The notes: generated from the letters alone by a model not told the origin. 64,000 nt of DNA from an uncultured delta proteobacterium (GCA_963706575.1 CAVPNL010000004.1:384001-448000), one strand, 5' to 3'; positions 14,429 through 36,352 are shown, counted from the stretch's first letter. Made by a program: numbers and translations.

Positions 14429-15310
14429 TCAGCACATTTGTCGAAACGCTTCATAAGCGTTCTCAAAGCGATCGAGATTTTTCTTAGTGTAGTCCACGTA
14501 ATCGAAATCCAGGGTTGAGTGGATCTCAGAGACAATGCTCCACAGTGTTTCACGCAATAATGATACACACTTCATTGCAGCAAGACGGCGGCGCAGTCCG
14601 TCTGTCACCGCTTCCTGATAGTAGGTCTCCAGGACCCAATCTTCCTGTGCCGGAGATAGCTCATTGTTTGATGACAGATTCGCAAGATCAAATAGCGCTG
14701 TATTGTAGCCCGCATAATCCCAGTCGAGGAGCCAGAGCCGCTTGCCGTCATCAATGAAATTAGCGGCCAGCAGATCATTATGACCGAATACCAATTTTAT
14801 TTCACCGACTGTTTTTTCCAATTCTTCGTTGACTTCAAGAAAGCGCGGAAGGTGGTCGATCATCCGGCTGTTGCCCTCCCGGGCCGTGTGAATGTAGTTT
14901 CGGCAGACATGGAACGGCCAGAAGACCAGTGCCGCACCCATAAAATGTTTTGGTATTTCATTGTGACAGGCATGGATCAGGTGAATAATTCGTTCCAGGT
15001 TGTTCGGCTCACGCACTTCAGGCTCCGTAAGTGTTTTGCCTTCAATGAATCGCATAATAAAGATGCCCTCGGCGCTATAGACAATTTCAGGCGAGATGCC
15101 GGCAGCATAAGCCGCGCGCGCAGCTGCGACCTCGTTAAAGCGCATGACCCCGTGAACCGGGATGTCTTCGCCAACCCGGACGACAAAAAGCTCACCTCGG
15201 TCGTCAACGACAAAATTGGTGTTGGTAATACCGCCAGCCAGAGGTTTAGGCTCTACTGGTGAAGCCCAAAAATCCAAATTTGCAACCCGATCGCGGGTAC
15301 GCGTGTTCAT
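14429..15310 (-). CDS. Choline/ethanolamine kinase family phosphotransferase
   Basis: GGITN, Brenner motif HNDLLAANF, LLDWDYAG. Confidence 0.85.
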   Translation of the reverse strand: MNTRTRDRVANLDFWASPVEPKPLAGGITNTNFVVDDRGELFVVRVGEDIPVHGVMRFNEVAAARAAYAAGISPEIVYSAEGIFIMRFIEGKTLTEPEVREPNNLERIIHLIHACHNEIPKHFMGAALVFWPFHVCRNYIHTAREGNSRMIDHLPRFLEVNEELEKTVGEIKLVFGHNDLLAANFIDDGKRLWLLDWDYAGYNTALFDLANLSSNNELSPAQEDWVLETYYQEAVTDGLRRRLAAMKCVSLLRETLWSIVSEIHSTLDFDYVDYTKKNLDRFENAYEAFRQMC

Positions 15311-15559
15311 GATCTTAGCCTTTTTTTAATATCATCAGAGTATTCTTACGTTCAAGGCTCTATGCTTTGATCAGGCGATCAGAAAAAATGGAAAAAAGAA
15401 TGAAACGAAAAAGCTAATATCAGAGGAATCCGGCGTAGTCAAGTTGCCGTCAACTGCTCTTTGGGAAAAAAGATGTAAAAATAATAAGAACTTTTTTTTT
15501 AAAGGAAGTATAAAAAAATGAATCCTCAATACCATACAAATAGGAAGAACATTTTTCGA

Positions 15560-15587
15560 TTGACACAACTACAAGTTCCACTATAAA
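15560..15587 (+). promoter_or_regulatory. Putative sigma70 promoter for the Liv ATPase genes
   Basis: TTGACA-N16-TATAAA about 100 bp upstream of 15690. Confidence 0.5.
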
Positions 15588-15689
15588 ACCCATCCATAGA
15601 AAGCGTCCTCTTATTACCTGTTTATCTGGAACCAATGAACCTCACTATTTCTATTTACCTCAGAATGACATAAAGGAGCAACAAAGCCG

Positions 15690-16460
15690 GTGACAATACT
15701 CGAAGTGAAGGGATTGAGCAAGTACTTCGGCGGTCTAGCCGCGCTAAATGACATCAATCTCACCATCCAGGAAGGTGAAATAAGAGGAATAATTGGCCCC
15801 AATGGTGCGGGCAAGACCACCCTTTTTAATGTCGTCAGCGGGGTGTACCGCCCCGACTCAGGACAGATATTCTATATGGATGACAAGCGTATCGATGGTC
15901 TTGCTACAAGTAAGATAGCAGAAATGGGACTGGTCCGGACTTTCCAGCGCACAGCCCTCTATCAAGATTTTACCGTCCTCAAAAATGTCACCGTGGCCCG
16001 CCATCTTCATGCCAGGGAAAATATCTTTGGCGTGTTTGCCGGCACGGTTAAGAAATTGGAAGCGGAAAATGTTGAAAAGGCTTCCGAAATAGTGGATTTC
16101 ATGAAATTGGGACCCCTTAAAAATGAGCTGGCGGCAAACCTGCCTCACGGTCACCAGAGAGCGCTGGGTGTTGCCATTGCACTGGCCAGTGAGCCCAAGG
16201 TATTGCTGCTGGATGAGCCCCTGACCGGCATGACCCCGACCGAAAAAGCAGATATGATCGATCTGATCAGAAAAGTGCACCAGCAGGGTATTACTATCCT
16301 GATCGTGGAGCACGATATGAAATCTGTTATGGAACTGTGTGACTATATCAGCGTACTTGATTTCGGTAAACTGCTGGTCGAAGGAATCCCCGCTGAAATA
16401 CAGAACGATGAAACGGTAATTAATGCGTATCTGGGGACTGAAAACATGATATCGGCGTGA
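15690..16460 (+). CDS. livG: Branched-chain-amino-acid-type ABC ATPase (LivG-like)
   Basis: GPNGAGKT, RTFQ, LPHGHQR, LLLDEP, VEHDM, AYLG. Confidence 0.9.
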   Translation: MTILEVKGLSKYFGGLAALNDINLTIQEGEIRGIIGPNGAGKTTLFNVVSGVYRPDSGQIFYMDDKRIDGLATSKIAEMGLVRTFQRTALYQDFTVLKNVTVARHLHARENIFGVFAGTVKKLEAENVEKASEIVDFMKLGPLKNELAANLPHGHQRALGVAIALASEPKVLLLDEPLTGMTPTEKADMIDLIRKVHQQGITILIVEHDMKSVMELCDYISVLDFGKLLVEGIPAEIQNDETVINAYLGTENMISA

Positions 16461-16470
16461 GGTAAAAAAA

Positions 16471-17181
16471 TTGCTTCTTGAGGTTAAAGACATCACGGTG
16501 CATTACTTCAAGGTACCCGCCATTAGAAACATTTCAATAACCGTAGATGATGGTGAAATCGTTGCGCTTATTGGGTCGAACGGAGCCGGCAAAACGACCA
16601 CCCTACGCGCCATCAGCGGTTTGAAACACCCCACTACGGGAGAAATCCACTTCAAGGGTCAGAGAATAGACAAGCTGCCTCCGTATAAGATAAATGCCCG
16701 GGGTATTGCCATGGTTCCCGAAGGAAGACGGGTCTTCCCTCAAATGACGGTGCTGGAAAACCTCTTAATGGGTGCTTTTTTGCGCAAGCAAAAGGACGCT
16801 ATACAAAAAGACTTAGATGAATTGGTCTTCAGGCATTTCCCGCGCCTCAAAGAAAGAACAACGCAGGATGCCGGTACCTTAAGCGGGGGTGAGCAACAGA
16901 TGCTGGCTATGGGACGCGCGCTCATGTCTGCGCCCAAACTGCTCCTTCTGGATGAACCTTCTCTGGGTCTGTCACCTATCATGTGTGGAGAAATTGGAAA
17001 AATCATTATGAATATCCATACCGAAGGCAGAACCGTCATCCTGGTAGAGCAAAACGCCCGTCTGGCCCTGGGGCTGGCCCAATATGCCTATGTTATCGAG
17101 ACCGGCGATATCGCTCTATCCGGCCCGGCTAAAGAGCTACGTGAAAACGATAATGTGAAAAAAGCCTATCTGGGGGGTTAA
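16471..17181 (+). CDS. livF: Branched-chain-amino-acid-type ABC ATPase (LivF-like)
   Basis: GSNGAGKT, VPEGRRVF, LSGGEQQML, DEPSLGL, VEQNA. Confidence 0.9.
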   Translation: MLLEVKDITVHYFKVPAIRNISITVDDGEIVALIGSNGAGKTTTLRAISGLKHPTTGEIHFKGQRIDKLPPYKINARGIAMVPEGRRVFPQMTVLENLLMGAFLRKQKDAIQKDLDELVFRHFPRLKERTTQDAGTLSGGEQQMLAMGRALMSAPKLLLLDEPSLGLSPIMCGEIGKIIMNIHTEGRTVILVEQNARLALGLAQYAYVIETGDIALSGPAKELRENDNVKKAYLGG

Positions 17182-17239: not shown

Positions 17240-17262
17240 GTAACTGTAATTATTTTTTTTAT

Positions 17263-18243
17263 TCAGCCTACTTCCGTTGCCGGCACACCACGCAACTTTT
17301 GCCACTGAGCGACAACCTTCGAGATCAAGCTCTCAATACCTCCGGGTATAAACAGCAGCACAAATATAATGGCAAGACCGAAAAACGCAGGTCTTATCTG
17401 TATTAGCGGGCGTGAGAGTTCGAAAGCGGTATACATCACAGATACCCCAATAATCGGCCCCCAGAAGGTATTGGTACCACCAACAACCACCCAGATGAGA
17501 AGGTATAGCATGGTGTGGATGTCGAACAACTTCGGATCAACGGCGCCCAATCGGTGAACCAGAAGCCCCCCTGCTATACCTGCAATGAAACTGCCGATGG
17601 CACAGGCCAACAGTCTGTGTCGGGGAATATTTATTCCGGTCGACGCCGCCAGACCAGGATCCATGGAGATCGCTTTAAAAGCATCCCCGATCCGCGATTT
17701 TTCTATGCGATACAGCAAATACAGTACAATGAGCATGACCACCAGGCTGAAGAAATAGTAGGGAATCGAATCACTAAAATCGATTCCTCCGATTACCGGC
17801 GGGTAGGGGATGCTGATGATGCCCGTGGAACCGCCAAAGGGGTAGCGAAACTTTAGCCAGGTCAACCTGATGAGCTCCGCCAGCCCAAAAGTGGCGATAT
17901 AAAAGCTCCACCCTGTGGTTCTCAGCAGAATCAAAGTAATCATGACACCAAACAGGCAGGCCATTACCCCTCCCACGGGGATGGCTAAAAAGACCGGGAA
18001 ACCGAAATTCTTTGCCAACATGCCGCTGGTGTAAGCACCGACACCGTACAGGACTACATGATACAGCTGCCAGTCATGCACCGTAACGATTAGGCGGTAA
18101 CTCTGGGCAAGGATGATCCAGATAAAGAAAATCATGGCGACTTCAACCAGATATGGCCTGGCAAAAAAGGGGAACATACACAGCCCTATAATTACGGCTA
18201 CCAACGCCCCAATCCTGAATCTTTCGGTGTTAGTTGGTGACAC
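17263..18243 (-). CDS. livM: Liv-type ABC permease (LivM-like)
   Basis: GAYTS, SRIGDAFKAI, VVVGG..TFWGPIIG. Confidence 0.85.
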   Translation of the reverse strand: MSPTNTERFRIGALVAVIIGLCMFPFFARPYLVEVAMIFFIWIILAQSYRLIVTVHDWQLYHVVLYGVGAYTSGMLAKNFGFPVFLAIPVGGVMACLFGVMITLILLRTTGWSFYIATFGLAELIRLTWLKFRYPFGGSTGIISIPYPPVIGGIDFSDSIPYYFFSLVVMLIVLYLLYRIEKSRIGDAFKAISMDPGLAASTGINIPRHRLLACAIGSFIAGIAGGLLVHRLGAVDPKLFDIHTMLYLLIWVVVGGTNTFWGPIIGVSVMYTAFELSRPLIQIRPAFFGLAIIFVLLFIPGGIESLISKVVAQWQKLRGVPATEVG

Positions 18244-19099
18244 GGCCCAATAATCCCTGCGGTCTGATTGGTAATACGAGAGCCATAACGGTAACCGAAA
18301 CCATTAAGGCTGCGACACCGTCGACCAGCGTCGTAACAAAGGTCATGACAAAGCCCATGATAATGGAGGCTAGAACGACCCCCCCAACGCTCCCCATTCC
18401 GCCTACAATCACCACGATGAGAGCAGGTAGGATAAGGTGGCCTGCCAGCGCAGGCGTTACCGCATATATCGTCGACATCAGCCCTCCTGCTATGCCGGCC
18501 AAGGCACCGGCAATGGCCAGGGCCAGGGCCGTCATCATGTTGATGTTTATTCCCTGCAGCGATGCGGTTTCCGGGTCCTGAGCCACCGCTCGCAGTGCGC
18601 GTCCCAATCTGAACCGGCGCATAAAGATCATGAGCCCGCCTATGCAAACAACGGCAAAGGGTATGACAAGAACCCTTTGGAAGGCCACCGAAGCACCCAT
18701 AATCTTAAAGGGGCGCATATAGGGACTGGGGATCGTCCGCATATGCCCCCACCCCCAGACTTCGCCGCAAAAGACTTCGATAACAAACATGAGTCCGGCA
18801 GTCGCAATAAACCCAGCGACCACATCCCCCCGTAATGGTCGAAAAATAGCTCGCTCGATGGCCAGACCAACGATCGCACCTACCACCAGTGCCGCGGCCA
18901 CTGCTCCCCAAAATGGCCAACCACCCAAGGCATAGAGGGCATATACGGTATAGGCGCCTATCATAAAGACGTGGGCATGCGCCAAATTTGCCATTTGCAT
19001 GACGCCAAAGGCCAGAGTCAAACCCACGGCTATCAAAGCATACATACTACTGGCTGCGACCGCGTTAGCGATGGTTTGGATTAAAAGCTGGCTAGTCAT
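18230..19099 (-). CDS. livH: Liv-type ABC permease (LivH-like)
   Basis: YALIAVGLTLAFGV..NLAH, LGRALRAVAQD, VIVGGMGS. Confidence 0.88.
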   Translation of the reverse strand: MTSQLLIQTIANAVAASSMYALIAVGLTLAFGVMQMANLAHAHVFMIGAYTVYALYALGGWPFWGAVAAALVVGAIVGLAIERAIFRPLRGDVVAGFIATAGLMFVIEVFCGEVWGWGHMRTIPSPYMRPFKIMGASVAFQRVLVIPFAVVCIGGLMIFMRRFRLGRALRAVAQDPETASLQGININMMTALALAIAGALAGIAGGLMSTIYAVTPALAGHLILPALIVVIVGGMGSVGGVVLASIIMGFVMTFVTTLVDGVAALMVSVTVMALVLPIRPQGLLGRVTN

Positions 19100-19209
19100 A
19101 CGTTACCTCATCACCTGATTGTAATTCCGATAGCAAACTTTGTTAGAAATAACATTTGAAGAAGTATCCACGGGAGCTGGTGCTCAACACCACTCCCGTG
19201 GATTAAGGA

Positions 19210-20676
19210 TTAGCGCTGATCCCACATCTGTCCGCGTTCTCTTACCGCTTTAAGGACGACGTTTTTGATATTCGCATACCAGGGCTCGAAATTCAAATGA
19301 GCCACAATGCGTTTATCTTTGGCCTTGAGATTAAACATGCACATGGGAACAGGCTCTTCGATCATGTTGTCGATACCAAACATCTCCTTACCGCTCATAT
19401 GCCCCGGGCCAAGGATGGTGGGAAACGACGGCAGCTTCCTCAGGGCAGCCAATATGGCATCGTTGGTAGGCCACTTGCCCGGCGTGTCTTTACCGGCAAC
19501 CTGGGCGCCGATGCACCATGGTATCAGCCAGATCATGTGATCCCAATCGATGCCGGTCATGCGGCGTTTAACGTCTTCAGGAGCCCCCGGACCATATCTT
19601 TGGTTCCACACATCGGTAAATGACTTCTGCCAAGATGTTTCACCCCACCAGGGATCATCCATCAAGGGGAAGCTGTCGATGCCGAATTGAGCAGCGGCAT
19701 AGTCTGCCGGGATCTTGGTGAGGTTGGTTTCCCAGTCGGCATAGTTCTGAACAACCACACCCTTATATCCCTGCAGGTACAACTGCTCCCACATCATGGT
19801 TTGGTATTCGGGCCAGGCCTCACACAGGCTGATAACATCAGGTTTGCTCGCCATTACGGCGGTGATTACCGGGGCGAAGTCGGTTTGGTCAACGGCGAAG
19901 AACTCCTCGTAGACGATATCAAACCCCATGGCCTTGGCGGCGCCGATCTCCCATGCGCCAACCTGGCGGGACATGATGCAGTCCTGAGTGGTTAACGCAT
20001 ATTTCAACGGTCTTCCCAGCTCCTTTTCACTGGGCAAAACCATCCTGGCTATCAGGGCATTGAACATGTTGCACTGAGGGGTTATATCTCCGCCGGCGAC
20101 GACGTATGGCTTCTTCGGATCGCAGTCGGTGGGGACCAGGGAAGCATAGACCACTTTGTGCTTGGTGAGGAAGGGTGCGGTGGAGTTGGCAGCATCACCG
20201 CCAATGGCACTAATGAATTTAACATCATGCTCTAGGACCAATTGGCGGGCACCCTGGAGTGCCTTGGCGGCGTTGGCCTCGTCGTCAAAGGCATGCATCT
20301 TCATCGGATATCTTTTGCCACCGACGAGGAGACCACCGGTCTTATTGACGGCATCAATCCAGATATTATTTCCGGTAAGTCCAGGAAGTCCCCACCCGGC
20401 ATCAGGTCCTGACAGCGCGCAGAGGAAGCCGACGTTAATCGCCTCCCCTTTGGGGTACTTTTTTCCTATCTGCTGATCAGGCAGGTGGCTTAAGATAACC
20501 ATTTCGTCTTCGGAAAGCCCGGCGGGCGCAGATGCCGCTACTGAGGGTAACGCTAGTGCCAAGCCTGACGCGGGCCCGGCAACACCCAAAAGTTTTAAAA
20601 ATTCCCTCCTTCCAATTTTTCCTTTCATATATTGTTTATGCAGCCTATCCAATTTGTCTTGCGGATCATGCTTCAT
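19210..20676 (-). CDS. Liv-type ABC substrate-binding protein with Tat signal
   Basis: GRREFLK twin-arginine motif; VGFLCALSGP, VNKTGG, DFAPVIT. Confidence 0.8.
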   Translation of the reverse strand: MKHDPQDKLDRLHKQYMKGKIGRREFLKLLGVAGPASGLALALPSVAASAPAGLSEDEMVILSHLPDQQIGKKYPKGEAINVGFLCALSGPDAGWGLPGLTGNNIWIDAVNKTGGLLVGGKRYPMKMHAFDDEANAAKALQGARQLVLEHDVKFISAIGGDAANSTAPFLTKHKVVYASLVPTDCDPKKPYVVAGGDITPQCNMFNALIARMVLPSEKELGRPLKYALTTQDCIMSRQVGAWEIGAAKAMGFDIVYEEFFAVDQTDFAPVITAVMASKPDVISLCEAWPEYQTMMWEQLYLQGYKGVVVQNYADWETNLTKIPADYAAAQFGIDSFPLMDDPWWGETSWQKSFTDVWNQRYGPGAPEDVKRRMTGIDWDHMIWLIPWCIGAQVAGKDTPGKWPTNDAILAALRKLPSFPTILGPGHMSGKEMFGIDNMIEEPVPMCMFNLKAKDKRIVAHLNFEPWYANIKNVVLKAVRERGQMWDQR

Positions 20677-21145: not shown

Positions 21146-23569
21146 CTAACTGAGAATCTTCTTGCGTTGGGGATCATAAAGCGCCCGATTGGGCTCCCGC
21201 CTGGCGGAGAAAATTTCCGTATAGGCCTCTATTTCATAGCCACCGGTATGATCGGCTTCGGCAACGGGGATATATCCGAAGGCTATCGTTTTCCCGACCG
21301 TATAACCGTAGCCGCAGCTGGTGGTCACCCCGATGACCTTGGCGCCACGAATAATCGGTTCGCTGCCGCGAAGCATCACCGGCTCTTTAACATCAAGCGT
21401 AAAGGTGCACAGTTTCCACTTCGGTCCTTGTTCTTTGACTTTGGCCAGCGCATCCCGGCCGAGAAAATCTCCTTTGTTCAAGGCGACGCAAAATCCTATT
21501 CCGGCGTCATAAGGGGTGTACTCAGGAGTCAGTTCGGCGCCCCAGAGGCAATAGCCTTTTTCAAAATGCAGGGAGTTGATGGCCCGGTAGCCGGCATTGG
21601 CAACACCCAGCTCCTGTCCGGCATCCCAGAGGCTCTCGTAAACATCACAGGCAAATTCGGCCGGAACATAAAGCTCGTAGCCCAGTTCACCGACAAAGGT
21701 GACCCGCAAAGCCTTTGTCGGTGCGTATCCCACGGTAATATCCCTGGATTTGCCGAATCTGAATTTTTCGTTGCTTATATCTTCCCGCGTAATTTTTTCC
21801 AAAAGCTTGCGAGAATTGGGTCCAATAACATTGATGACCGCCAGCGCAGATGTCACATCGCGGAATTTAACCGATCCGTCTGCGGGCATATGCCGTTTGA
21901 TCCACTGAGAATCATGCAGACCGAGGGCCGTTCCAGTAACCAGTAAAAATCGGTCCTCAGCCATGCGTGCGATGGTGATATCCGCTTCAATCGTTCCGCG
22001 TGCATTACACAGCTGGGTGTAGGTGACACTGCCAACCGGTTTATCGATGTTGTTGGCTGCCAGCCAGTTTAAAAACGACAGTGCCCCGGGCCCTTCGATT
22101 TCAAATTTGTTAAACGATGATTGATCAATCAGAACGACATTTTCACGCGCCGATTTGTGCTCGTTGCCGACATGTTCAAACCAGTTGGGGATTCCAAATG
22201 TCAGCTCGTCTTGGGGTTCAACACCATCGGGCGCAAACCAGTTCGGCCGCTCCCAGCCGTATTTGGCGCCGAATACCGCGCCCTTTTCTTTTAGCAGGAA
22301 ATACAGCGGGCTGCGCCGGATACCCCTGGCAGAATGATGCTCCTCACCGGGCCAGTGAATGGTGTAATGCTTACCGTAAATTTCCCGTGTCCTTTCGACA
22401 TTATAGGCCCGGCTTTTGTGGTAGGGACCAAACCGTCGGATATCCAGTGGCCAGATGTCCAGGCTCGGCTCTCCCTCGATAATCCACTCGGCCATCATAC
22501 GACCGGCACCCCCACCGGCGGCAATTCCGAAAGCATTGAATCCCACCGCGACGAATACGTTTTCCAGCTCCGGCGCCGGCCCCATGATCGCATCGCCATC
22601 CGGCGTAAAGGCCTCCGGGCCGTTGATTAATTTGGAAATACCGGCCTTTTTAAGGCAGGGTGTGCGGTCCATGGCCGGTTGGGAAAGCTGCATAAAGTGA
22701 TCATGATCGGAATTCAGCAGCTTTGATGTAAAATCATTCGGCACCCCGTCAACGGCCCAGGGGATGCCGTTTCTTTCATACCCCCCCATCACCAATCCGC
22801 CAACTTCTTCCTTATAGTAGAGCAAATTGTCTTTGTCGCGAATGGTCGGCAAATCTTTCGGTATGCCCTCAATCGGGTCGGTAACCATATATTGATGTTG
22901 AAACGGCACAACGGGCGTATTGACCCCCAGCATCTCGCCGATCTGGTAGCCCCACATGCCGGTGCAATTGACAAGGATTTCACACTGAATATCGCCTTTA
23001 TTGGTTTTCGCGGCTGAAACTCGATTTCTGCCGAATTCAAATCCGGTCACCAATGTATCGCGATATATTTTGGCGCCTTGATTACGCGCGCCCCTGGCTA
23101 AAGCCTGGGTAATGCCGGCGGGATCGGCCTGGCCATCTGTCGGCATAAATGCCGCTCCGATGATGCCGTCCAGGGAAAGAATCGGACAGAGGTCATAGGC
23201 TTCCTTGGGGGTAATCATGTGCATTTCCAGCCCGAAGCTGCGGGCAGTGGTGGCACCGCGCTTGAGCTCAAGCATGCGTTCAGGGGTGCTGGCCAGGTGC
23301 AGACAGCCACTTTTCTTCCAGCCGGTGGCCAGGCCGGTTTCCGCTTCGAGTTGTTCGTACAGGCTGACACTGTATTGCAGCATGCGGGTAATGTTCCGTT
23401 CGGAACGCAGCTGACCCACCAAGCCGGCCGCATGCCACGTAGAGCCGCTGGTTAGTTCTCCCTTTTCTATAATGACGACATCTTTCCAGCCCATCTTAGT
23501 GAGGTGGTAGGCTGTGCTGCAGCCGATGATACCGCCGCCGATTATCACGACCTGTGCACTGTCTTTCAT
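21146..23569 (-). CDS. GcvT-family FAD/THF-dependent amine dehydrogenase (dimethylglycine/sarcosine dehydrogenase-like)
   Basis: GGGIIG, GSTWHAAG (covalent-FAD His), NGPEAFTPD, GWERP, GELGYELY; 807 aa. Confidence 0.9.
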   Translation of the reverse strand: MKDSAQVVIIGGGIIGCSTAYHLTKMGWKDVVIIEKGELTSGSTWHAAGLVGQLRSERNITRMLQYSVSLYEQLEAETGLATGWKKSGCLHLASTPERMLELKRGATTARSFGLEMHMITPKEAYDLCPILSLDGIIGAAFMPTDGQADPAGITQALARGARNQGAKIYRDTLVTGFEFGRNRVSAAKTNKGDIQCEILVNCTGMWGYQIGEMLGVNTPVVPFQHQYMVTDPIEGIPKDLPTIRDKDNLLYYKEEVGGLVMGGYERNGIPWAVDGVPNDFTSKLLNSDHDHFMQLSQPAMDRTPCLKKAGISKLINGPEAFTPDGDAIMGPAPELENVFVAVGFNAFGIAAGGGAGRMMAEWIIEGEPSLDIWPLDIRRFGPYHKSRAYNVERTREIYGKHYTIHWPGEEHHSARGIRRSPLYFLLKEKGAVFGAKYGWERPNWFAPDGVEPQDELTFGIPNWFEHVGNEHKSARENVVLIDQSSFNKFEIEGPGALSFLNWLAANNIDKPVGSVTYTQLCNARGTIEADITIARMAEDRFLLVTGTALGLHDSQWIKRHMPADGSVKFRDVTSALAVINVIGPNSRKLLEKITREDISNEKFRFGKSRDITVGYAPTKALRVTFVGELGYELYVPAEFACDVYESLWDAGQELGVANAGYRAINSLHFEKGYCLWGAELTPEYTPYDAGIGFCVALNKGDFLGRDALAKVKEQGPKWKLCTFTLDVKEPVMLRGSEPIIRGAKVIGVTTSCGYGYTVGKTIAFGYIPVAEADHTGGYEIEAYTEIFSARREPNRALYDPQRKKILS

Positions 23570-24865: not shown

Positions 24866-25000
24866 AGGTTTGGAGGTTCAGGGTTCAGTTTTCAAAGGTT
24901 CGGAATTTCCGAATTCAGAAGTAGGGCGGGTCTCTGCGCCCGCCGTTCGGAGGTCGGCACGGAGGCCAATCCTACTTGCTGGCACCTGACACCTGAAACC
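24866..25000. repeat. Composite heptamer arms plus GTAG REP doublet (24921-24975), second copy
   Basis: gtagggcgggtctctgcgcccgccgttcggaggtcggcacggaggccaatcctac is nearly identical to 6396-6450; flanked by ggttcag and cacctga repeats. Confidence 0.8.
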
Positions 25001-27522: not shown

Positions 27523-28725
27523 TCAGGCTTCAAGACATTTGCCTGCAAATGCCACCATTTCCTCGGTTGCATTGGAGAACTGCTCAGCGGTTTTCTCAAG
27601 TGCCGGATGCGTGTTGTATTCATCCCGCGAATAGCCATCCGCGGAACAGCCTCTTTCAAAATAGGGAACCCGCATGAGTTTATCCATTAGATCCTTGGGG
27701 ATATCTTCCAGGATACGATCTTTTTCAAAACTGATTTTTTCGATACCGGGCAGGAAAAGAACCTTATCGATAAAGCTGGGCGGGCAGGTCACAACGACGT
27801 CTGCACCGCTTTTTTCTTCCATATGCCAGATACGATTTTGGCCGTCAACGGTCGGGCCAACGATCAGTGAGCAGGACAGCATCTTGCTCGGCAGATCATT
27901 ATCCTTCAAATACTTGTAAGCCTTTTTGAAAACCGCCAGTTCAGCCAGTCGAATTTCACCGTCGGACAGCTCGATCCCCTTTTCAGCGGCAAAGTCTTTT
28001 AAACCACCGAGGTTACCAAATCGGCCTTCCATGTGGGTAATAACCGAGCGCCACTTACTCAAATCCACCCCGTTTTTCCGGGCGGTTTCAAGCCCCCTTT
28101 TGACAGTGTCGGCACAATCCACCAGCTGGGGCAAAACAAAGGTCAGGGTGTTGTTGGTGGGAATCCCTTTGGCTGTCAGGTATTCAATGACTTCGTAGCC
28201 CTGCTTGGAACCGGGAATCTTGATCATGACGTTGGGGTTAATCGCCGCTATTTCTTCGGCCTGACGGATCATGGCATCCTTATCAAACACGCTGCGCGGA
28301 TCCACCTGCCCCGAAAGAAAGCCTTCCTTGTAATTGCTGGCTTCAAATAACGGCAGATACATATCCGAGCCGCGTTTTACAACCGTCTTGTATAGCTCCC
28401 AGAAAAGCGCCTCTTTATCGAAATCCGGATTCTCAGCCAGAATGTCTTTCGCCACCTTTTCCCAGTAGGCGGGATCATCCTGAATGGCCTGCAGCGAAAG
28501 GGGTGGATTGGTGGTGACGCCCCTGAACAGTTGACTCATCGGATTGTCCCGGTCATACATTCGATTGAATTGCGTCTTTAATAAATCGCGGTCATTGGCA
28601 TCCGCCTTTTCCAATATTTTTTTGCACCAGTTTTCGAAAATAACAGGAGACGAATCCCACCAGATCTCCATACCCGGGCTGATGTCGACCAGCCTTTCAA
28701 AAAAATTTCTTTCTTCCATTGTCAT
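27523..28725 (-). CDS. Transaldolase/FSA-family class I aldolase (atypical)
   Basis: WWDS, GVTTNP, SGQVDPR, NVMIKIP (Schiff-base Lys), NNTLTF. Confidence 0.85.
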   Translation of the reverse strand: MTMEERNFFERLVDISPGMEIWWDSSPVIFENWCKKILEKADANDRDLLKTQFNRMYDRDNPMSQLFRGVTTNPPLSLQAIQDDPAYWEKVAKDILAENPDFDKEALFWELYKTVVKRGSDMYLPLFEASNYKEGFLSGQVDPRSVFDKDAMIRQAEEIAAINPNVMIKIPGSKQGYEVIEYLTAKGIPTNNTLTFVLPQLVDCADTVKRGLETARKNGVDLSKWRSVITHMEGRFGNLGGLKDFAAEKGIELSDGEIRLAELAVFKKAYKYLKDNDLPSKMLSCSLIVGPTVDGQNRIWHMEEKSGADVVVTCPPSFIDKVLFLPGIEKISFEKDRILEDIPKDLMDKLMRVPYFERGCSADGYSRDEYNTHPALEKTAEQFSNATEEMVAFAGKCLEA

Positions 28726-28757: not shown

Positions 28758-29531
28758 CTAGTGTTTGGTGTTCAAGGTTTCAGAACTTGAGTGATATCTC
28801 CCCAGTTCAATTTCAAGCTTATATTTATCCCCCCTGTGATAGGAGTAAAGCAGTTCTATGGGAATGCTGTTTTCATCGAAGGTGAGGCTTTCGATAAAAA
28901 TGCCGGCGGAATTTTGGGGCAACTCCAAAATCGATGCGATGTTTTGGTTCAAATTCACCGCGCTGATGGTCTGTTTACAACGGGCAAGGGAGACCTTGAA
29001 GTGTTCGGTCATGATTTTGTACATCGAACCGATCAGGTTCATCTCCTGGATGCCGTCAAATATGTCGCTGGGCAGGTAACTTTCTTCATAGACATAGGGC
29101 GTGCCGTCACCAATTCTCACCCGTTGCACATGAATCACTTTTTTGTTGGAACCTAAAAATAAAACTTTGGCAATTTCATCTCCAGCCTGCTCAACCCGTT
29201 TTTCCAGAACCCGGGTACTTTGCGCGATGCCGCTGTCCTGCATCAAATCGGTGGTACTTGAAATGTGCTCGAGTTTATGCCTTAATTCGGCAGGCGTCGG
29301 CGCGGACACAAATGTGCCGGTCCCCTTCTCTTTGCGCAGCAGCCCCTTGGCGGTTAATTCCGCAATGGCCTGTCTGACCGTTGTGCGGGTAACATCACAC
29401 ATCCTGGCCAGTTCAACTTCGGATGGAAGCTGCTCACCCTTCTGGTATCTGCCGGTCTCAATGAGCTCGTTTAACCAGGCGCTGATCTGAATGTATTTGG
29501 GAATTGGGTTGGATGTGTCAACAATTTTCAT
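28758..29531 (-). CDS. GntR/HutC-family transcriptional regulator (wHTH + UTRA)
   Basis: PKYIQI, LPSEVELA, VTRTTVRQA, GTGTFV; C-terminal UTRA ending YHRGDKY. Confidence 0.92.
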   Translation of the reverse strand: MKIVDTSNPIPKYIQISAWLNELIETGRYQKGEQLPSEVELARMCDVTRTTVRQAIAELTAKGLLRKEKGTGTFVSAPTPAELRHKLEHISSTTDLMQDSGIAQSTRVLEKRVEQAGDEIAKVLFLGSNKKVIHVQRVRIGDGTPYVYEESYLPSDIFDGIQEMNLIGSMYKIMTEHFKVSLARCKQTISAVNLNQNIASILELPQNSAGIFIESLTFDENSIPIELLYSYHRGDKYKLEIELGRYHSSSETLNTKH

Positions 29532-30018: not shown

Positions 30019-31794
30019 ATGACCATCTGGCTGGTGACCCTTATTTTAGTTGTGGCGATGCTTTTGTTGATAACCGAGAAGCTACCGGTGGATCTGACTT
30101 CAATCGGTATCATCGTCGTATTGACAGGCAGCGGAATTTTAGCACCAACCGAAGCCATCGCGGGCTTTGCGAACCCGGCGGTCATAACTGTTGGTGCTAT
30201 GTTTCTGATCAGCAAAGGCATGATCCGCACCGGGGCCGTCGCATTTATCAGTCAAAAAGTAATTGAGTATTCCCGCGGCAGACCGACCCTGGCCATATTT
30301 TTAATCCTGGCCATCGTGGGTACGGCTTCGGCCTTTATTAACAACACCCCCGTTGTGGTTCTGTTTATCCCTATTATTTTAAGTCTCAGCTGCGAACTGG
30401 ATTTCAGCCCGTCCAAATTTTTGATCCCGGTTTCCTATGCTTCCATTTTGGCCGGCACCTGTACGTTGATCGGGACTTCGACCAATATCATTATCAGTGA
30501 TTTGAGTGCCGCACACGGCTTCGGGCCTTTGGGCATGTTTGAGCTTTCACCGCTGGGCCTGCCCATCGCCCTGCTGGGTATATTTTTCCTGATTTTTGCT
30601 GCACCGAAACTGATGCCGAGTATGCACAATCCGGCCTGTGAGCTCAAGGATTCGGAGCATCGGCGTTACCTTGCCGAATTCCAGGTCCCGCGCGAAAGCC
30701 CCATCATCGGTGAAAACCCGAATTCCTACTTTACCGGAAAGTACCCCAGCATGGAAGTACTCGAATTGATCCGGTATTCGCATGTTTTTTATCCGGACCG
30801 GGATCCGGTAAAAATCGCACCCGATGACCTGCTGCTGGTGAAAGGTTCGGCCAATGACCTGGTTGAAATTCTCAACGAAGATGCTGTGGATCTGCCCATG
30901 GCGGAAAAAGATATAAATTTCGCGGCCGAACAAAAGGAATCGCTGATCGTTGAGCTGATCATACCGCCGCAGTCAAGGCTTTTGGGTGAGCGGCTGGTGG
31001 CAAGCCGCCTGCAGCGGGATCCGGATATCCATATCATCGCTATTAAGCGCAGGGAGCTTCATTATGCCGAGCCAAAAGTCAAAGACATCCGGTTAAAAAT
31101 CGGCGACATCCTTCTGGTTCGTCTACCGGAATCATCGGTGGAACGACTGCGCGGCGAGACGGATTTCATCATCGTCGAAGACGTCCATCATGAAATTGTG
31201 CACAAAAGACTGGCGCGACGCGCGTTCCTGATTTTCGGGGCGATGATTGTGACTGCCAGCACCGGGATGGCGGATATTTTAACTTGTGCCATGGCAGCTG
31301 CCTTTCTGATGCTTTTAAGCGGATGCCTGCAGTTGCGAGACGCCTATCGGGCCATGGACGGCCGGGTTCTTTTAATTATTATTGCCATGATTGCACTGAG
31401 TGCCGCGCTGGAAAAAACAGGCGCCTCCGAACTTTATGCCGGCGCATTTCTCAGCCTGCTCAAGGGGCTCAGTCCGGCTTATGTCCTGAGCGGGGTCATT
31501 TTGCTGACCAGCATCAGCACGCATGTATTAAGCAACAACGCCACCGCGATTCTGCTGCTGCCCATTGCGATTTCGGCCGCCCAGGGTATGGGGGTCGACC
31601 CCAAACCGTTTATCATTGCGGTTTGCTTTGGCGCCAGCGCCTGTTTTGCAACACCGATCGGTTATCAAACGAATTTGCTGGTGTATGGTCCCGGCGGGTA
31701 CCGCTTCAACGATTACTTCAAACTGGGAATGCCGCTGAATTTGCTTGTTTTGGTGATGGGTTCCCTTTTCATCCCAATGATCTGGTCATTTTAA
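30019..31794 (+). CDS. SLC13/CitMHS-type permease with TrkA-C domains
   Basis: SAFINNT, GTCTLIGTSTN, central TrkA-C repeats, LSNNAT, TPIGYQTNLLVYGPGGY. Confidence 0.88.
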   Translation: MTIWLVTLILVVAMLLLITEKLPVDLTSIGIIVVLTGSGILAPTEAIAGFANPAVITVGAMFLISKGMIRTGAVAFISQKVIEYSRGRPTLAIFLILAIVGTASAFINNTPVVVLFIPIILSLSCELDFSPSKFLIPVSYASILAGTCTLIGTSTNIIISDLSAAHGFGPLGMFELSPLGLPIALLGIFFLIFAAPKLMPSMHNPACELKDSEHRRYLAEFQVPRESPIIGENPNSYFTGKYPSMEVLELIRYSHVFYPDRDPVKIAPDDLLLVKGSANDLVEILNEDAVDLPMAEKDINFAAEQKESLIVELIIPPQSRLLGERLVASRLQRDPDIHIIAIKRRELHYAEPKVKDIRLKIGDILLVRLPESSVERLRGETDFIIVEDVHHEIVHKRLARRAFLIFGAMIVTASTGMADILTCAMAAAFLMLLSGCLQLRDAYRAMDGRVLLIIIAMIALSAALEKTGASELYAGAFLSLLKGLSPAYVLSGVILLTSISTHVLSNNATAILLLPIAISAAQGMGVDPKPFIIAVCFGASACFATPIGYQTNLLVYGPGGYRFNDYFKLGMPLNLLVLVMGSLFIPMIWSF

Positions 31795-31820: not shown

Positions 31821-32774
31821 TTAAACCGCAACACCGTATTCCTCATTCATGAACTTCAGATTCCCGATTGCATTTTCATATTTGACCTTGCCGTAATTGT
31901 AATAGTCGAATTCGATTTTTGAGATATTGAGTTGAATCAGACTCCATAAAAACCAGTAAATGTCCGGGAATGGTTTAAACAGATCGATAAGATATAGCAC
32001 ATGATCGAATTTGTAACCGTCGCAATAGGCTTCAACAATCTGTATTTCAGCTTTGCGCGGGACCAGGATTTCCTGAAACATGTCCGCAATATCATAATAC
32101 TTGGGTGCCATGCCGGCATACTCCCAATCGATGATATACATGGGCAGCTCGTATTTGTGCAGCGCATCTTCTCTAATGAGTATGAAATTGTCGGCCAGCA
32201 GATCGTTGTGGCAGGGGGCATATTCAGATTCGGGGATGTTGATAATACTCGACAGTTTGATAAGGCGATCGATGGTGCCCGCAATGTCAAATTCCGGATA
32301 GTCCACCTTGAGCCCCCTGAGGATGGCTGACATCTTCATCACTTCCACCAGGGGATTAAAAATTTTTTCCAAATTTACGCCGCTGGTGTGAATTTTGCGG
32401 ATCGGGTCAACGATTTTGGGATACAGCGCTTTGTCCAGAAAGTGATCGTTTGTCAAAACAATGGCATCATCGATGAATTCAACAATGGTAACGCCTTTCT
32501 CAGGCATATATTTGATCATATTGGAGGATACGCCGACTTTTGACATTTCCCGGATCGCCTGGGCCTCATAGTCGCGGTTGATAAAAAGATCGGTTTTATC
32601 CCCGTAGATCCGAACGGTGTAATCGCCTTTTTCAGACTGAACCCGGTACAGTTTATTGGTTATTCCGCCGCTTAGCTGTGTGATATGGACATCAAGGCCT
32701 TTCCATTCCGGCAAAAGTTCATAACAGGCTTCCCGGGTGAATTCCTGATCCAAAAGGCGCGTTGCCGAGCACAT
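31821..32774 (-). CDS. Choline/ethanolamine kinase (LicA-like), second family member
   Basis: LSGGITN, VRIYG...INR..E, PCHNDLLADNF, IIDWEYAG. Confidence 0.88.
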   Translation of the reverse strand: MCSATRLLDQEFTREACYELLPEWKGLDVHITQLSGGITNKLYRVQSEKGDYTVRIYGDKTDLFINRDYEAQAIREMSKVGVSSNMIKYMPEKGVTIVEFIDDAIVLTNDHFLDKALYPKIVDPIRKIHTSGVNLEKIFNPLVEVMKMSAILRGLKVDYPEFDIAGTIDRLIKLSSIINIPESEYAPCHNDLLADNFILIREDALHKYELPMYIIDWEYAGMAPKYYDIADMFQEILVPRKAEIQIVEAYCDGYKFDHVLYLIDLFKPFPDIYWFLWSLIQLNISKIEFDYYNYGKVKYENAIGNLKFMNEEYGVAV

Positions 32775-33174: not shown

Positions 33175-34224
33175 ATGAAAAGACGCGATTTTCTAAAAAA
33201 AGCAGGTGTGGGAGCCGCTGCCGTGGCAGCCACAACGGTAAACGCACCCTTTGTGCATGCGGCCAAGAAAACGACCATCAAGTGGCGGATGCAAACGTAT
33301 GCCGGCCCTGCCCTATCTGCGCATGTCTGCAAACCGGCAATCGATGCCTTTAACAAGGTCGCCGATGGCGAGATGGTGATCGAATTGTACAATTCTGATC
33401 AGCTGGTGCCCACGGGTGAGCTGTTTAGAGCCATGCAGAAGGGGACCATTGACGCCGTCCAGAGTGATGATGACTCCATTGCGGCACCCGTAGACGTGTC
33501 CATTTTTGGTGCTTACTTCCCGTTTGCGTCACGCTACTCGCTGGATGTTCCCGCACTATTTAACTGGTATGGGCTGAACGAAATCTGGCAGGAAGCCTTC
33601 GCTGAAGTAAAAGGCGTCACCTGGCTGAGTGCCGGGGCCTGGGATCCCTGCAATTTCGCCAGCACCAAACCGATCCGACACCTTGCAGATCTCAAGGGAC
33701 TGAGAATGTTTATGTTTCCCACCGGCGGCCGGTTCATGCAACAATTCGGCGTCATCCCGGTGGCCCTGCCCTGGGAGGACATTGAGATGGCGGTTCAAAC
33801 GGGTGAACTGGATGGGGTTGCCTGGTCCGGCATCACCGAGGATTATACGGTCGGATGGGCGGATGTCACCAAATATTATCTGACCAACCCCATCTCCGGT
33901 GCCTGGGCGGGTTCGTATTATGCGAACTCCGATTCATGGAACGCCCTGCCGGAGCGCCTGAAGACGTTGTTCCGTCTTCAAATGGACAGTTCCCACTACT
34001 ATCGGCAACACTGGTACTGGTGGGGTGAGGCGCACTACCGCACCAAAGGTGGTAAATTAGAACTTACCTCCATCCCCGCAGAGGAGTGGAAACAGGTGGA
34101 AGATGCGGCTCTCAAATTCTGGGACGAGACTGCCAAAAAGAGCCCCAGGAGTGCCAAGGTCGTAAAAATACTCAAAGAGTACGCCCAAACCATGAAAGAC
34201 GCCGGTCCTCCCTACCGGTACTAA
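33175..34224 (+). CDS. dctP: TRAP transporter substrate-binding protein with Tat signal
   Basis: MKRRDFLKK, WRMQT, DLKGLR, QTGELDG; the canonical carboxylate-binding Arg position reads F (GLRMFMF). Confidence 0.85.
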   Translation: MKRRDFLKKAGVGAAAVAATTVNAPFVHAAKKTTIKWRMQTYAGPALSAHVCKPAIDAFNKVADGEMVIELYNSDQLVPTGELFRAMQKGTIDAVQSDDDSIAAPVDVSIFGAYFPFASRYSLDVPALFNWYGLNEIWQEAFAEVKGVTWLSAGAWDPCNFASTKPIRHLADLKGLRMFMFPTGGRFMQQFGVIPVALPWEDIEMAVQTGELDGVAWSGITEDYTVGWADVTKYYLTNPISGAWAGSYYANSDSWNALPERLKTLFRLQMDSSHYYRQHWYWWGEAHYRTKGGKLELTSIPAEEWKQVEDAALKFWDETAKKSPRSAKVVKILKEYAQTMKDAGPPYRY

Positions 34225-34253
34225 TGAATTGGGCATCAGCATTTATGATCGCA

Positions 34254-34309
34254 TAGCGGTGGCCTTCCCTGGCTGCAAAATAGAACCGGTCAGGGAAGGT
34301 AGACCGCTA
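34254..34309 (+). terminator. Stem-loop after dctP
   Basis: tagcggtggccttccctggc...gtcagggaaggtagaccgcta. Confidence 0.55.
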
Positions 34310-34517
34310 AAACCCCGGATTAAAACTTCATTGAGCGATTTATTACCAAGAGAAGTGCCGAGATATTGATGCCTTAGGATCCACGAAAACGCTATATCCG
34401 CATTTGGCGGATTTAGGGTTGGGCGCGAATCACTTCTGCATCATGGATTCGGTGCAGATCGTGTAAAAAATCGCTTGATTCAATTATGGGTAAAGGGACT
34501 TAAGGAAAGGGGCAACG

Positions 34518-35030
34518 ATGCCTAAAGCAGTTAAAACCTTCGTGCGCGCTGTTGAGAAAACGAACAAAATTGTAGGCAAGTTCTCCATGTATCTGGTCTT
34601 CGCTATGATGGGGATCCTGCTCTACGAACCGGTTGCCCGAAACCTCTTCGGTAAGTCAAGCATATGGGCGGTTGAGATGGCGCAATTCACGATGGCCGCT
34701 TATTACCTGCTTGGCGGTGGATACTCCATGATTCTCAAAGGGCATGTTAGAATGGATCTGCTCTATGGCCGGTGGTCGGACAGGAAAAAGGCTTTTGTTG
34801 ACGCTATTACCTGCCTTTTCTTAATCTTCTACCTGGTGTTTCTCCTGGTCGGCGCCTATTCCAGCATTGAATACGCTGTCATGTACGGGCAAAGAAATCG
34901 ATCCGCATGGGCACCCTATATGGCGCCCATCAAGATTATTATGGGGACCGGCGTTCTGCTGATGCTGTTGCAGGCGATGGCAACATTTTTCAAGGATCTG
35001 GCAAAGGCGAGAGGAGAAGATATAACATGA
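34518..35030 (+). CDS. dctQ: TRAP small permease
   Basis: Four TM segments, HVRMDLLY motif. Confidence 0.88.
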   Translation: MPKAVKTFVRAVEKTNKIVGKFSMYLVFAMMGILLYEPVARNLFGKSSIWAVEMAQFTMAAYYLLGGGYSMILKGHVRMDLLYGRWSDRKKAFVDAITCLFLIFYLVFLLVGAYSSIEYAVMYGQRNRSAWAPYMAPIKIIMGTGVLLMLLQAMATFFKDLAKARGEDIT

Positions 35031-36352
35031 GCTATGAAATGATTGCGATACTGATATTCAGTTCGATGATGCTCATGCTTCTCACCGGGCAGCGTGTCTT
35101 TGGTGCCATTGGTGGGGTCGCCACTATTTTCGCCCTGATGCTTTGGGGCAAAGGTGCTGCGGAGATGCCCTTTAACTCGGCCTTTGCCTTACTGAACTGG
35201 TATCCGCTGCTAACCCTGCCGTTATTCGTCTATATGGGGTATATGTTTTCCGAGTCGGGAATCGCAAGTGACCTCTACAAAATGTTCCATGTCTGGATGG
35301 GGTCGGTCAAAGGTGGATTAGCCATCGGAACGATGGGGCTCATGGTCGCCGTATCCGCTATGAACGGGTTAAGTGTCGCCGGCATGGCGATTGGTGCGAG
35401 TCTGGCTTTACCGGAAATGCTCAAGCGAAAATATGACAAGGTCATGGTCACCGGCGTCATCCAGGCGGGCAGTTCCCTGGGCATTATGGTCCCGCCCAGC
35501 GTGGTGCTCGTTCTCTATGGCATGATCGCCAGGCAACCTGTCGGCCAGCTATGGCTGGCCGGTGTCTTCCCGGGCCTCCTGCTGGCCGGCTTGTTTATTT
35601 TATACATCGCGATCAGATGCAAACTGCAGCCCCACTTGGGTCCATCGTTATCCAAGCAAGAGCTGGCGACCATAACCTGGGGGCAGAAGTTGCGATTGCT
35701 CAGGGCCGGGGTAGTCCCGCTTGTCATTATTTTTTCCATGACTGGGCTTTTCCTGCTGGGGATTACTAGTCTGGTCCAGTGTTCGGCGGCAGGTGCATTA
35801 GCAACCACCCTTGCCGCTCTCGCCAAAGGCCGGTTAAGCAGGAAGGTGCTGGATGAGACCTTAAAGAGTACGCTGAGCGTTAGCTGCATGTTCATGTGGG
35901 TGATTCTGGCGGCGCTCTGTTTTGGTGCGGTCTTTGACGGTCTGGGTGCGGTGCATGCGATAAAGTCCCTATTTATCGAAAGGTGGGGTCTCAGTCCATT
36001 CGGGATACTCGTGATGATGCAGTTGTCCTACATCCTGATGGGCATGTTTCTGGACGATACGGCCATGCTCATCATTGTCGCCCCCCTTTATGTTCCCCTG
36101 GTAATCAGCCTGGGTTATAACCCGATCTGGTACGGTGTTCTCTACACCATCACCTGTCAGATTGCCTACATGACGCCTCCTTTCGGCTATAACCTTTTTC
36201 TGATGAAGGCTATGGCGCCACCGGAGGTATCGCTGGGGGATATCTACCGCTCGATCGTACCCTTTGTACTGGTTATGCTTGTCGGTTTAATCATTGTCAT
36301 GCTGTTTCCCGGGATTGCCCTTTGGTTGCCCAATTTATATTTCGGGAGATGA
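35027..36352 (+). CDS. dctM: TRAP large permease
   Basis: ATGA overlap with dctQ; PLFVYMG, GGLA, LGIMVPPS, TPPFGYNLF. Confidence 0.9.
   Translation: MSYEMIAILIFSSMMLMLLTGQRVFGAIGGVATIFALMLWGKGAAEMPFNSAFALLNWYPLLTLPLFVYMGYMFSESGIASDLYKMFHVWMGSVKGGLAIGTMGLMVAVSAMNGLSVAGMAIGASLALPEMLKRKYDKVMVTGVIQAGSSLGIMVPPSVVLVLYGMIARQPVGQLWLAGVFPGLLLAGLFILYIAIRCKLQPHLGPSLSKQELATITWGQKLRLLRAGVVPLVIIFSMTGLFLLGITSLVQCSAAGALATTLAALAKGRLSRKVLDETLKSTLSVSCMFMWVILAALCFGAVFDGLGAVHAIKSLFIERWGLSPFGILVMMQLSYILMGMFLDDTAMLIIVAPLYVPLVISLGYNPIWYGVLYTITCQIAYMTPPFGYNLFLMKAMAPPEVSLGDIYRSIVPFVLVMLVGLIIVMLFPGIALWLPNLYFGR

Follow-up and report, generated by a model that had tools for sequence, protein, structure and literature searches.

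We analyzed a 64,000-nucleotide stretch from an uncultured delta proteobacterium of the sediment Desulfobacterales (GCA_963706575.1 CAVPNL010000004.1:384001-448000, here called the window), in which positions 14,429 to 36,352 hold a candidate catabolic gene cluster (Table 1). An earlier description, made without database searches (the sequence-only reading), had proposed that this cluster takes amino alcohols through a kinase, a transaminase and an aldolase. Its core is a run of gntR, tal-like, ald, ald, hisC-like and DMGDH-like genes, all on the minus strand with intergenic gaps of 32-204 nt, and this co-oriented run is present as had been described, the DMGDH-like gene having been termed gcvT-like. 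Liv binding protein and permease genes resume the run 469 nt past the DMGDH-like gene, livG and livF lie convergent to them on the plus strand, and the kinase gene K1 follows. The other flank holds an SLC13 transporter gene, the kinase gene K2 and genes of a TRAP (tripartite ATP-independent periplasmic) transporter that diverge from K2. Both kinases, which had been called choline/ethanolamine-type, fall in PF01633 and are 25% identical to each other. The two ald copies are the sole Ald genes, and the window tal the sole TAL-family gene, found in the source genome, which is 91.8% complete, a figure with which all whole-genome absences given below are to be read. The region is a core operon with two separately mobile importer-kinase modules, not a single operon; promoter and terminator scans gave chance level only (17 vs 18.2; 27 vs 22.2).

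Sediments offer ethanolamine and choline head groups as major sources of carbon, nitrogen and phosphorus, and the known bacterial routes for ethanolamine use a B12-dependent ammonia-lyase, a glycyl-radical lyase, gamma-glutamylation or a kinase with a phospho-lyase. We consider it probable that the cluster encodes a route by which ethanolamine, and probably also its N-methyl forms, are converted to glycolaldehyde 2-phosphate and on to D-xylulose 5-phosphate. EtoXVW would import ethanolamine and K2 would phosphorylate it; Liv with K1 would form a second entry, probably for an N-methylated relative, and a PhnS2-like ATP-binding cassette (ABC) importer may take up ready-made phosphate esters. The DMGDH-like protein would move the N-methyl carbon to tetrahydrofolate and pass electrons to ETF and a CCG Fe-S protein, with demethylation either before or after phosphorylation. 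The HisC-like aminotransferase would then transaminate phosphoethanolamine with pyruvate, and Ald would return the alanine to pyruvate, yielding ammonia and NADH. The TAL-like protein, with fructose 6-phosphate as the probable donor, would yield xylulose 5-phosphate for transketolase, while in relatives a class II aldolase and a CbbY-like phosphatase would reach the same product via xylulose 1,5-bisphosphate. What we observed directly are the genes present, their homologies and conserved residues, their co-occurrence and the in-place gene swap. The earlier kinase-transaminase-aldolase idea gains from homology to EtoX, from the co-occurrence and from the swap pointing to xylulose 5-phosphate; it loses in that the transaldolase is non-canonical, the genes do not form one operon and a rival based on aminophosphonates had been left out of account.

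Table 1. Genes of the cluster and associated transport genes, in window coordinates.
Feature	Coordinates	Strand	Family assignment or remark
GntR/HutC-type (UTRA) regulator, first in core run	28758..29531	-	PF00392+PF07702; homologue in 44/80 tal loci
Divergent transaldolase-family protein (TAL_FSA)	27523..28725	-	PF00923
Alanine dehydrogenase 1	26320..27441	-	TIGR00518 over cut-off
Alanine dehydrogenase 2, tandem copy	25000..26115	-	TIGR00518 over cut-off; 76% identical to copy 1
HisC-like pyridoxal phosphate (PLP) aminotransferase	23741..24829	-	TIGR01141 274.1 vs cut-off 276.55
DMGDH-like FAD/folate protein	21146..23569	-	DAO+FAO_M+GCV_T+GCV_T_C domains
Liv-type ABC binding protein and two permeases (SBP/H/M)	17263..20676	-	PF13458, PF02653
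Liv-type ABC ATPases livG, livF	15690..17181	+	convergent with permeases; inverted layout recurs in other loci
Choline/ethanolamine-kinase-family K1, Liv partner	14429..15310	-	PF01633
Choline/ethanolamine-kinase-family K2, divergent from etoX	31821..32774	-	PF01633
TRAP binding protein, EtoX/Csal_0678 clade	33175..34224	+	PDB 4UAB match
TRAP small and large permeases etoV, etoW	34518..36352	+	PF04290, PF06808
SLC13/TrkA-C transporter between gntR and K2	30019..31794	+	in 3/80 tal loci
PhnS2/T2/U2-like ABC importer, 18 kb outside the region	54543..58601	+	TIGR03261, TIGR03262 below cut-off

We profiled 301 genomes of the order with six proteins (HisC-like, close tal, CbbY-like, EtoX, K2 and the DMGDH subfamily). 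A total of 237 tal relatives were confirmed, from Desulfobacterales, Paracoccaceae, Thermoleophilia and others; the best 80 of these 237 loci were used for neighborhood counts, with neighbors scored as homologues at 45% identity or above. Kin genomes among the 301 are non-independent samples, so the co-occurrence counts are descriptive and not tests. The HisC-like gene is the most constant gene of the system and is found in 54 genomes of the order. It is present in 39 of the 41 close-tal genomes, 40 of the 43 with K2, 41 of the 44 with the DMGDH subfamily, 39 of the 49 with EtoX and 13 of the 14 with the CbbY-like gene, and 28 of the 54 hold all five of HisC-like, close tal, K2, DMGDH subfamily and EtoX. 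It also occurs in 60 of the 80 tal loci, always 44-3144 nt downstream of tal, a clustering far above chance, and the adjacency is kept in both Desulfobacterales and Thermoleophilia. The 20 tal loci without it comprise 11 Paracoccaceae-type loci of other context, 7 that stop less than 2 kb from tal, along with 2 true exceptions. Further recurrent neighbors are ald (46 of the 80 loci), transketolase (40), a choline-type or APH kinase (20), etfB (14), the DMGDH-like gene (13), K2 (12) and EtoX (11), and loci are often arranged with etoWVX diverging from K2-tkt-gntR-tal-ald-hisC-like. The kinase, HisC-like, transaldolase and ald genes, whose co-occurrence across taxa the sequence-only reading had proposed to check, thus travel together through the 301 genomes and the 80 tal loci.

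The 54 HisC-like genomes divide into 38 with the close tal only, 12 with the CbbY-like gene only, 1 with both and 3 with neither, where the gene lies near a contig end. The CbbY-like phosphatase is thus carried by 12 of the 15 HisC-like genomes that lack a close tal, and a class II aldolase lies beside it in every whole locus. Within the order the CbbY-like gene is confined to 14 of the 301 genomes, 13 of which have the HisC-like gene, 12 of those without a close tal. The aldolase is a 291-residue class II ketose-bisphosphate aldolase paired with the HAD phosphatase. Among 14 loci examined for placement, the pair adjoins the HisC-like gene in 10, and in 5 it fills the tal slot between gntR and ald; of the remaining loci, 3 are cut by contig ends and L122 has a different context. 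The best solved matches of the HAD protein are AtCbbY of Arabidopsis (E 8e-63) and RsCbbY of Rhodobacter (1e-38), both full length, and the next match stands at 3e-17. When a dihydroxyacetone unit is moved onto glycolaldehyde phosphate with the stereochemistry of transaldolase, xylulose 5-phosphate results. Xylulose 1,5-bisphosphate, for its part, has been prepared from dihydroxyacetone phosphate and glycolaldehyde phosphate, and CbbY turns it into xylulose 5-phosphate (PMC10212915). Two unrelated enzyme solutions would therefore converge on xylulose 5-phosphate, which is the best evidence that the aldehyde is glycolaldehyde phosphate, and an irreversible phosphatase would imply an assimilatory direction towards xylulose 5-phosphate. 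CbbY (PDB 4UAV, 4UAT), the best solved relative of the tal-replacing HAD, is known for the repair of a Rubisco by-product (PMC10212915), whereas the HAD of the relatives lies in a catabolic operon and no Rubisco was seen in 4 of the 5 CbbY genomes tested.

The HisC-like protein is predicted to be a phosphoethanolamine:pyruvate transaminase. A true histidinol-phosphate enzyme, the case that the sequence-only reading had set against its own proposal, is disfavored, as is a second true HisC: the protein narrowly misses the TIGR01141 cut-off (Table 1), and a separate HisC on contig C8 scores 332.5 on the same model. The two are 28% identical, and the HisC-like gene does not lie beside his genes. 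In HisC (subfamily I-beta), the imidazole is bound by an Asn/Tyr/Met/Tyr tetrad and the substrate phosphate by Asn/Arg/Arg (PMC4703992). With HisC and the aromatic aminotransferases (ArAT) the HisC-like protein shares the fold family, the PLP residues, the lid Tyr (Tyr19) and the substrate-phosphate Asn165 and Arg341; it differs in its Ser92/Phe116/Leu118/Trp249 pocket, which also includes Met37, and in having Lys328 for the second substrate-phosphate Arg. Y19, N165, K220, R228, K328, R341, S92, F116 and W249 are invariant in 55 of 55 sequences. The pocket fits a small phosphorylated amine, although this is a weak test since the tetrad is not intact in the separate HisC of this genome either, which has Asp, Phe and Phe at three of its columns. 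The predicted substrate, phosphoethanolamine, is histidinol phosphate minus the imidazolylmethyl side chain. Ald would convert the resulting alanine back to pyruvate, freeing ammonia.

A kinase-first ethanolamine route with a PLP phospho-lyase operates in Erwinia and Pseudomonas. By analogy, the PLP enzyme here could be a phospho-lyase that splits phosphoethanolamine into acetaldehyde, ammonia and phosphate, leaving the aldolases to handle acetaldehyde or an unrelated substrate. We regard this as very unlikely: although the enzyme class is established, the phospho-lyases described in PMC8154272 are relatives of class III aminotransferases, whereas the HisC-like protein belongs to subfamily I-beta. 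A lyase would need no Ald, yet ald is among the most frequent neighbors; the CbbY-like gene would also go unexplained, and no aldehyde dehydrogenase is found among the annotated recurrent neighbors. Less probable still is a loose mosaic, with tal and ald as housekeeping genes, the HisC-like gene as a second HisC or an aromatic aminotransferase and the importers unrelated, or else with a biosynthetic core. It would account for the tal and ald genes of the window being the only ones in the genome, for the rearranged or unlinked modules of many relatives and for Phe116, which matches aromatic aminotransferases. The near-exclusive co-occurrence in the 301 genomes, the adjacency kept in Desulfobacterales and Thermoleophilia and the separate HisC all speak against it, as does the fact that genomes G001 and G005 carry this tal plus another tal; the CbbY step, moreover, would be irreversible towards xylulose 5-phosphate.

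On the import side, the Liv ABC transporter and the TRAP system whose binding protein lacks the carboxylate Arg were both confirmed. The TRAP binding protein matches PDB 4UAB with E 9e-149, the next match being 2e-18; about 211 of 323 aligned positions are identical by a by-eye count (about 65%), the WSGITE motif is the same, and Phe179 stands where Arg-type binding proteins have Arg. PDB 4UAB is Csal_0678 bound to ethanolamine via Glu220 (PMC12410723), and Csal_0678 is described as being without the carboxylate Arg (PMC4646407). Glu222 of our protein is kept in 11 of 11 EtoX sequences; its identity with the published Glu220 (PMC12410723) presupposes that the numbering is shifted by 3 residues. 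Both Csal_0678 and Phaeobacter EtoX (MED193_10041) are reported to bind ethanolamine, the latter, from a gamma-glutamylation operon, with a Kd of 7.9 uM and without binding phosphoethanolamine (PMC10132767). From this homology we infer that EtoXVW imports ethanolamine. EtoX occurs without the HisC-like gene in 10 genomes, all 10 of which lack K2; 4 of them carry EutB, which lies within ~5.5 kb of etoX in 3. Where the EtoX clade has a known catabolic neighbor, that neighbor is thus an ethanolamine enzyme. Both kinases score over the PF01633 cut-off and have the HxDxxxxN and DW(D/E)Y motifs, and EtoX is found in 39 of the 43 K2 genomes. K2 is predicted to be an ethanolamine kinase.

The DMGDH-like protein finds its best PDB matches in DMGDH (E about 2e-176) and is predicted to be an N-demethylase of methylated ethanolamine or its phosphates. 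Two full-length paralogs (38% and 42%) lie on contig C15, as do the ETF and CCG Fe-S protein genes, which in relatives are adjacent. For Liv we examined the best 80 of 93 metagenome loci around the binding protein, 24 of them long enough to judge. K1 is present in 20 of these 24, with a more distant kinase in two of the other four; over the 80 loci the DMGDH subfamily is adjacent in 11, in several orientations, the HisC-like gene occurs in 2 and tal in 1. These counts mark Liv with K1 as a mobile unit tied to the demethylase. It may serve as a second entry module, for an N-methylated relative of ethanolamine. Its ligand is possibly an N-methylated amino alcohol. A PDB search gave no close solved relative for the Liv binding protein or K1, and the ESM Atlas gave nothing beyond generic names for tal and the Liv binding protein. 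The N-methyl branch of the route is weaker than the ethanolamine branch.

A different amino alcohol, such as 1-amino-2-propanol, serinol, aminopropanediol or a longer amino-polyol, would yield other aldose or ketose phosphates. The kinase and Liv ligands are not assignable by homology and the stereochemistry of the swap aldolase is unsettled, which leaves room for such substrates. We nevertheless judge them improbable for the system as a whole, since the EtoX clade binds ethanolamine and Trp249 and Met37, both invariant, point to a small pocket; they are possible mainly for Liv with K1. Serinol and amino-polyols had been held to fit equally well, a view that we reject on chemical grounds: serinol phosphate would yield dihydroxyacetone phosphate directly, and serinol phosphate or 3-amino-1,2-propanediol phosphate would give dihydroxyacetone phosphate or glyceraldehyde 3-phosphate with no aldol step, and hence no need of tal or of the aldolase and CbbY.

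Several observations weigh against the ethanolamine route, beginning with the TAL-like protein, whose predicted reaction joins a dihydroxyacetone unit to glycolaldehyde 2-phosphate and so forms xylulose 5-phosphate. Its model (pLDDT 81) matches transaldolases (best Z 30.9, rmsd 3.3, 333 aligned), and it shares with TalB, FSA and sulfofructose transaldolase the TAL fold, the Schiff-base Lys, the Asp, the Asn and the first phosphate Arg. D24, N73, Q140, K169, M232 and R235 are invariant in 76 of 76 full-length sequences. It is not the canonical enzyme that had been assumed. Gln140 occupies, in all 76, the position of the acid/base Glu of the C. glutamicum and N. gonorrhoeae transaldolases, a column that we take to be that of TalB Glu96 (the column assignments are based on motifs). 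The FSA-type Tyr is also missing: Met232, in a motif-assigned column, stands in all 76 where transaldolases have Phe and FSA has Tyr. FSA catalysis uses Gln59 with Tyr131 (PMC13259622), and the combination of Gln140 and Met232 means that neither known acid/base mechanism applies directly. The second phosphate-binding Arg is Ile in the window protein, one of 22 such sequences among the 76; 53 have Arg. His231 (75 of 76) and Glu233 (76 of 76) are candidates for the acid/base catalyst. This conserved His-Met-Glu motif, the Gln without Tyr and the 18-23% structural-alignment identity to solved members set the protein apart from TalB and FSA, and it appears to have been recruited to a catabolic pathway, as is sulfofructose transaldolase. 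As the sole TAL-family gene of the genome, it could also have a housekeeping role; a housekeeping transaldolase as the sole explanation is disfavored by its patchy distribution (5 of 22 genus genomes) and by the swap.

Points about the replacement enzymes and the distribution also weigh against the ethanolamine route. The swap aldolase scores alike on fructose- and tagatose-bisphosphate models, with all equivalogs below cut-off, and profiles do not settle its stereochemistry. Eight genomes of the order have tal homologues of only 41-51% identity and were left out of the 41 close-tal genomes; the HisC-like gene is missing from all eight, and the homologue sits in unrelated contexts in the four that were fetched. 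The 11 Paracoccaceae-type loci have tal genes 81-85% identical and no HisC-like gene. Six of the 10 EtoX genomes without the HisC-like gene lack EutB as well, and a weaker EutB-like match, in frames of 734-768 residues, occurs in 6 of the 54 HisC-like genomes; a strict exclusion between EutB and the proposed route is therefore not clean. K2 is missing from 14 of the 54 HisC-like genomes, only 2 of which have a K1-type match.

Thirteen of these 14 K2-less genomes carry a PhnS2-like binding protein (8 at 80-92%, 5 at 39-43%), which is found in 0 of 18 control genomes without the HisC-like gene. The ABC genes adjoin the core in L081, L117, L120 and L218, directly upstream of gntR in the last three. 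On the simplest reading this transporter is a candidate importer of ready-made phosphate esters where there is no kinase. Its distribution also feeds a rival explanation, in which the core acts on aminophosphonates (2-aminoethylphosphonate or its N-methyl or 1-hydroxy forms), with the HisC-like protein in place of PhnW, the flavoprotein in place of PbfC/D and aldol capture of the phosphono-aldehyde. Flavin demethylases of methyl-2-aminoethylphosphonate are known (PMC10590968), Ald equally suits PhnW-type chemistry, and the GntR regulator resembles PhnF/PhnR, below cut-off. Phosphonate-associated genes near the tal family likewise count for this rival and against the ethanolamine route: 4 Paracoccaceae loci have HpnZ-like and PhnX-like genes next to tal, L011 has a PhnX that scores over cut-off next to a distant tal, and the actinobacterial L103, L105 and L109 have an aminophosphonate-oxidoreductase-like gene. 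We nonetheless consider aminophosphonates unlikely, because no C-P cleavage enzyme is seen and kinases are pointless for a phosphonate. No PhnX, PhnW, PhnJ or PhnA over cut-off was found in the source genome, and no phosphonate-degrading gene was found there to go with the PhnS2-like ABC of the window. Without C-P cleavage the aldol product would be a dead-end phosphono-sugar, an ethanolamine-type binding protein would make no sense, and CbbY points to xylulose 1,5-bisphosphate, which requires a phosphate ester at C5.

Of 11 apparent HpnZ matches in tal loci, 7 were artefacts of an open reading frame overlapping tal and 4 are real. The four real ones lie in L036, L052, L058 and L085 (about 10000-21000), where a Paracoccaceae tal 83-85% identical to that of the window, with no HisC-like gene, is accompanied by an HpnZ-like dehydrogenase, a PhnX-like HAD, AP_endonuc_2 and a family-5 ABC system, and in two loci by a CbbY-like HAD. 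These loci probably represent another way to the same or a kindred C2 aldehyde.

The ethanolamine route differs from each described system with which it shares parts. With EtoXVW/Csal_0678 and gamma-glutamylation in Chromohalobacter and Phaeobacter MED193 (PMC10132767) it would share the binding protein clade without the carboxylate Arg and B12-independent ethanolamine use, whereas here, in a Desulfobacterales host from sediment, a kinase and a transaminase/aldolase core are present and no gamma-glutamylase or dehydrogenases are adjacent. Gamma-glutamylation itself is rejected: as had been noted, the window holds no genes for it, and the two glutamine synthetase (GS)-family genes of the genome are on contigs C6 and C1, away from the TRAP genes. 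The GS-like gene on C1 (L217 2838-8586, G000:C1) adjoins glutamate-synthase-like and SoxA-like genes and not etoX, a setting similar to an N-methylglutamate (methylamine) cluster. The noted absence of eutBC and cutCD extends to the whole genome, in which no EutB was found and no CutC over cut-off, two glycyl-radical matches lying below it. From PhnW/PhnX and PbfC/D (PMC8154272, PMC10590968) come the parallels of transamination of 2-aminoethyl-phosphorus compounds and flavin N-demethylation of their methylated forms; in contrast, our genome has no PhnW or PhnX over cut-off, kinases are present, and the aldehyde apparently enters an aldol step. In the Mth system of Eubacterium limosum (MthK, MthB, MthC, MthA), choline is phosphorylated before demethylation (PMC12155760). 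The likeness lies in kinase and MttB pairs inside the operon of some relatives, with an APH kinase and MttB between gntR and tal in L038, L047, L050 and L053. Mth as described stops at dimethylaminoethanol and needs cobalamin (PMC12155760), whereas here the demethylase is of the flavin/folate type and the route is predicted to use up the C2 backbone.

The system is real, conserved, modular and built from known families, and it likely performs an undescribed route: open-licence PMC papers and bioRxiv gave no description of phosphoethanolamine transamination to glycolaldehyde phosphate with formation of xylulose 5-phosphate, although older subscription work may be missed. Tentatively, it could represent a widespread anaerobic route for the (methyl)ethanolamine head groups of phospholipids, running through phosphate esters throughout, involving neither a B12 lyase nor a glycyl radical and releasing no trimethylamine, with a dedicated phosphoethanolamine transaminase and a Gln-type transaldolase that does without both known acid/base catalysts and is interchangeable with an aldolase and CbbY, the latter as a true pathway enzyme in bacteria without Rubisco. 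The proposed route would add one that holds on to the phosphate, yields NADH and brings the C2 unit in through the pentose phosphate pathway, and would give a function to three unassigned families (HisC-like, Gln-type transaldolase and CbbY outside carbon fixation). It would also offer a natural glycolaldehyde-phosphate route for the engineering of C2 assimilation. Its marker, the HisC-like gene, reaches 54 of the 301 genomes of the order, and the pair with tal extends to Thermoleophilia.

Other genes of the window and of related loci are recorded here. The SLC13/TrkA-C transporter was rejected as a pathway member and is probably a genus-level neighbor: besides being rare in tal loci (Table 1), it adjoins gntR in same-genus loci without K2 and EtoX. 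The true start of dctM is probably the ATG at 35027. Window positions 11058-14047, between K1 and a pair of HAD hydrolases, encode a glutamate dehydrogenase and a stand-alone glutamate-synthase FMN-domain protein, a pair missing from the corresponding position in the same-genus loci L111 and L118. The two HAD hydrolases are encoded with a PotD-like ABC system at 4643-11020 and recur near pathway genes in L066, L074, L077, L114, L115 and L132. An archaeal-type RecJ-like protein (727-1956) and a mevalonate kinase over the TIGR00549 cut-off (2234-3172) are both unusual for Desulfobacterales. An MttB-family gene follows the core operon in L113-L117, L119, L120, L127 and L132, mostly as two consecutive open reading frames, and a possible cause of the split in most of them is an in-frame amber codon of the pyrrolysine type. 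In ~17 of the 80 tal loci, among them L066, L071, L077 and L086 of Desulfobacterales, the HisC-like gene is followed by a block of class IV aminotransferase, alanine racemase (alr), CapA-like, Asp/Glu racemase and D-Ala-D-Ala-ligase-like (ddl) genes. Distant tal-family members (45-51%) in L122-L124 lie in other settings, beside an FGGY kinase, aldolases and an ARMT1 phosphatase or beside a class II aldolase, a hydrolase and a 2-oxoacid dehydrogenase, suggesting other sugar pathways.

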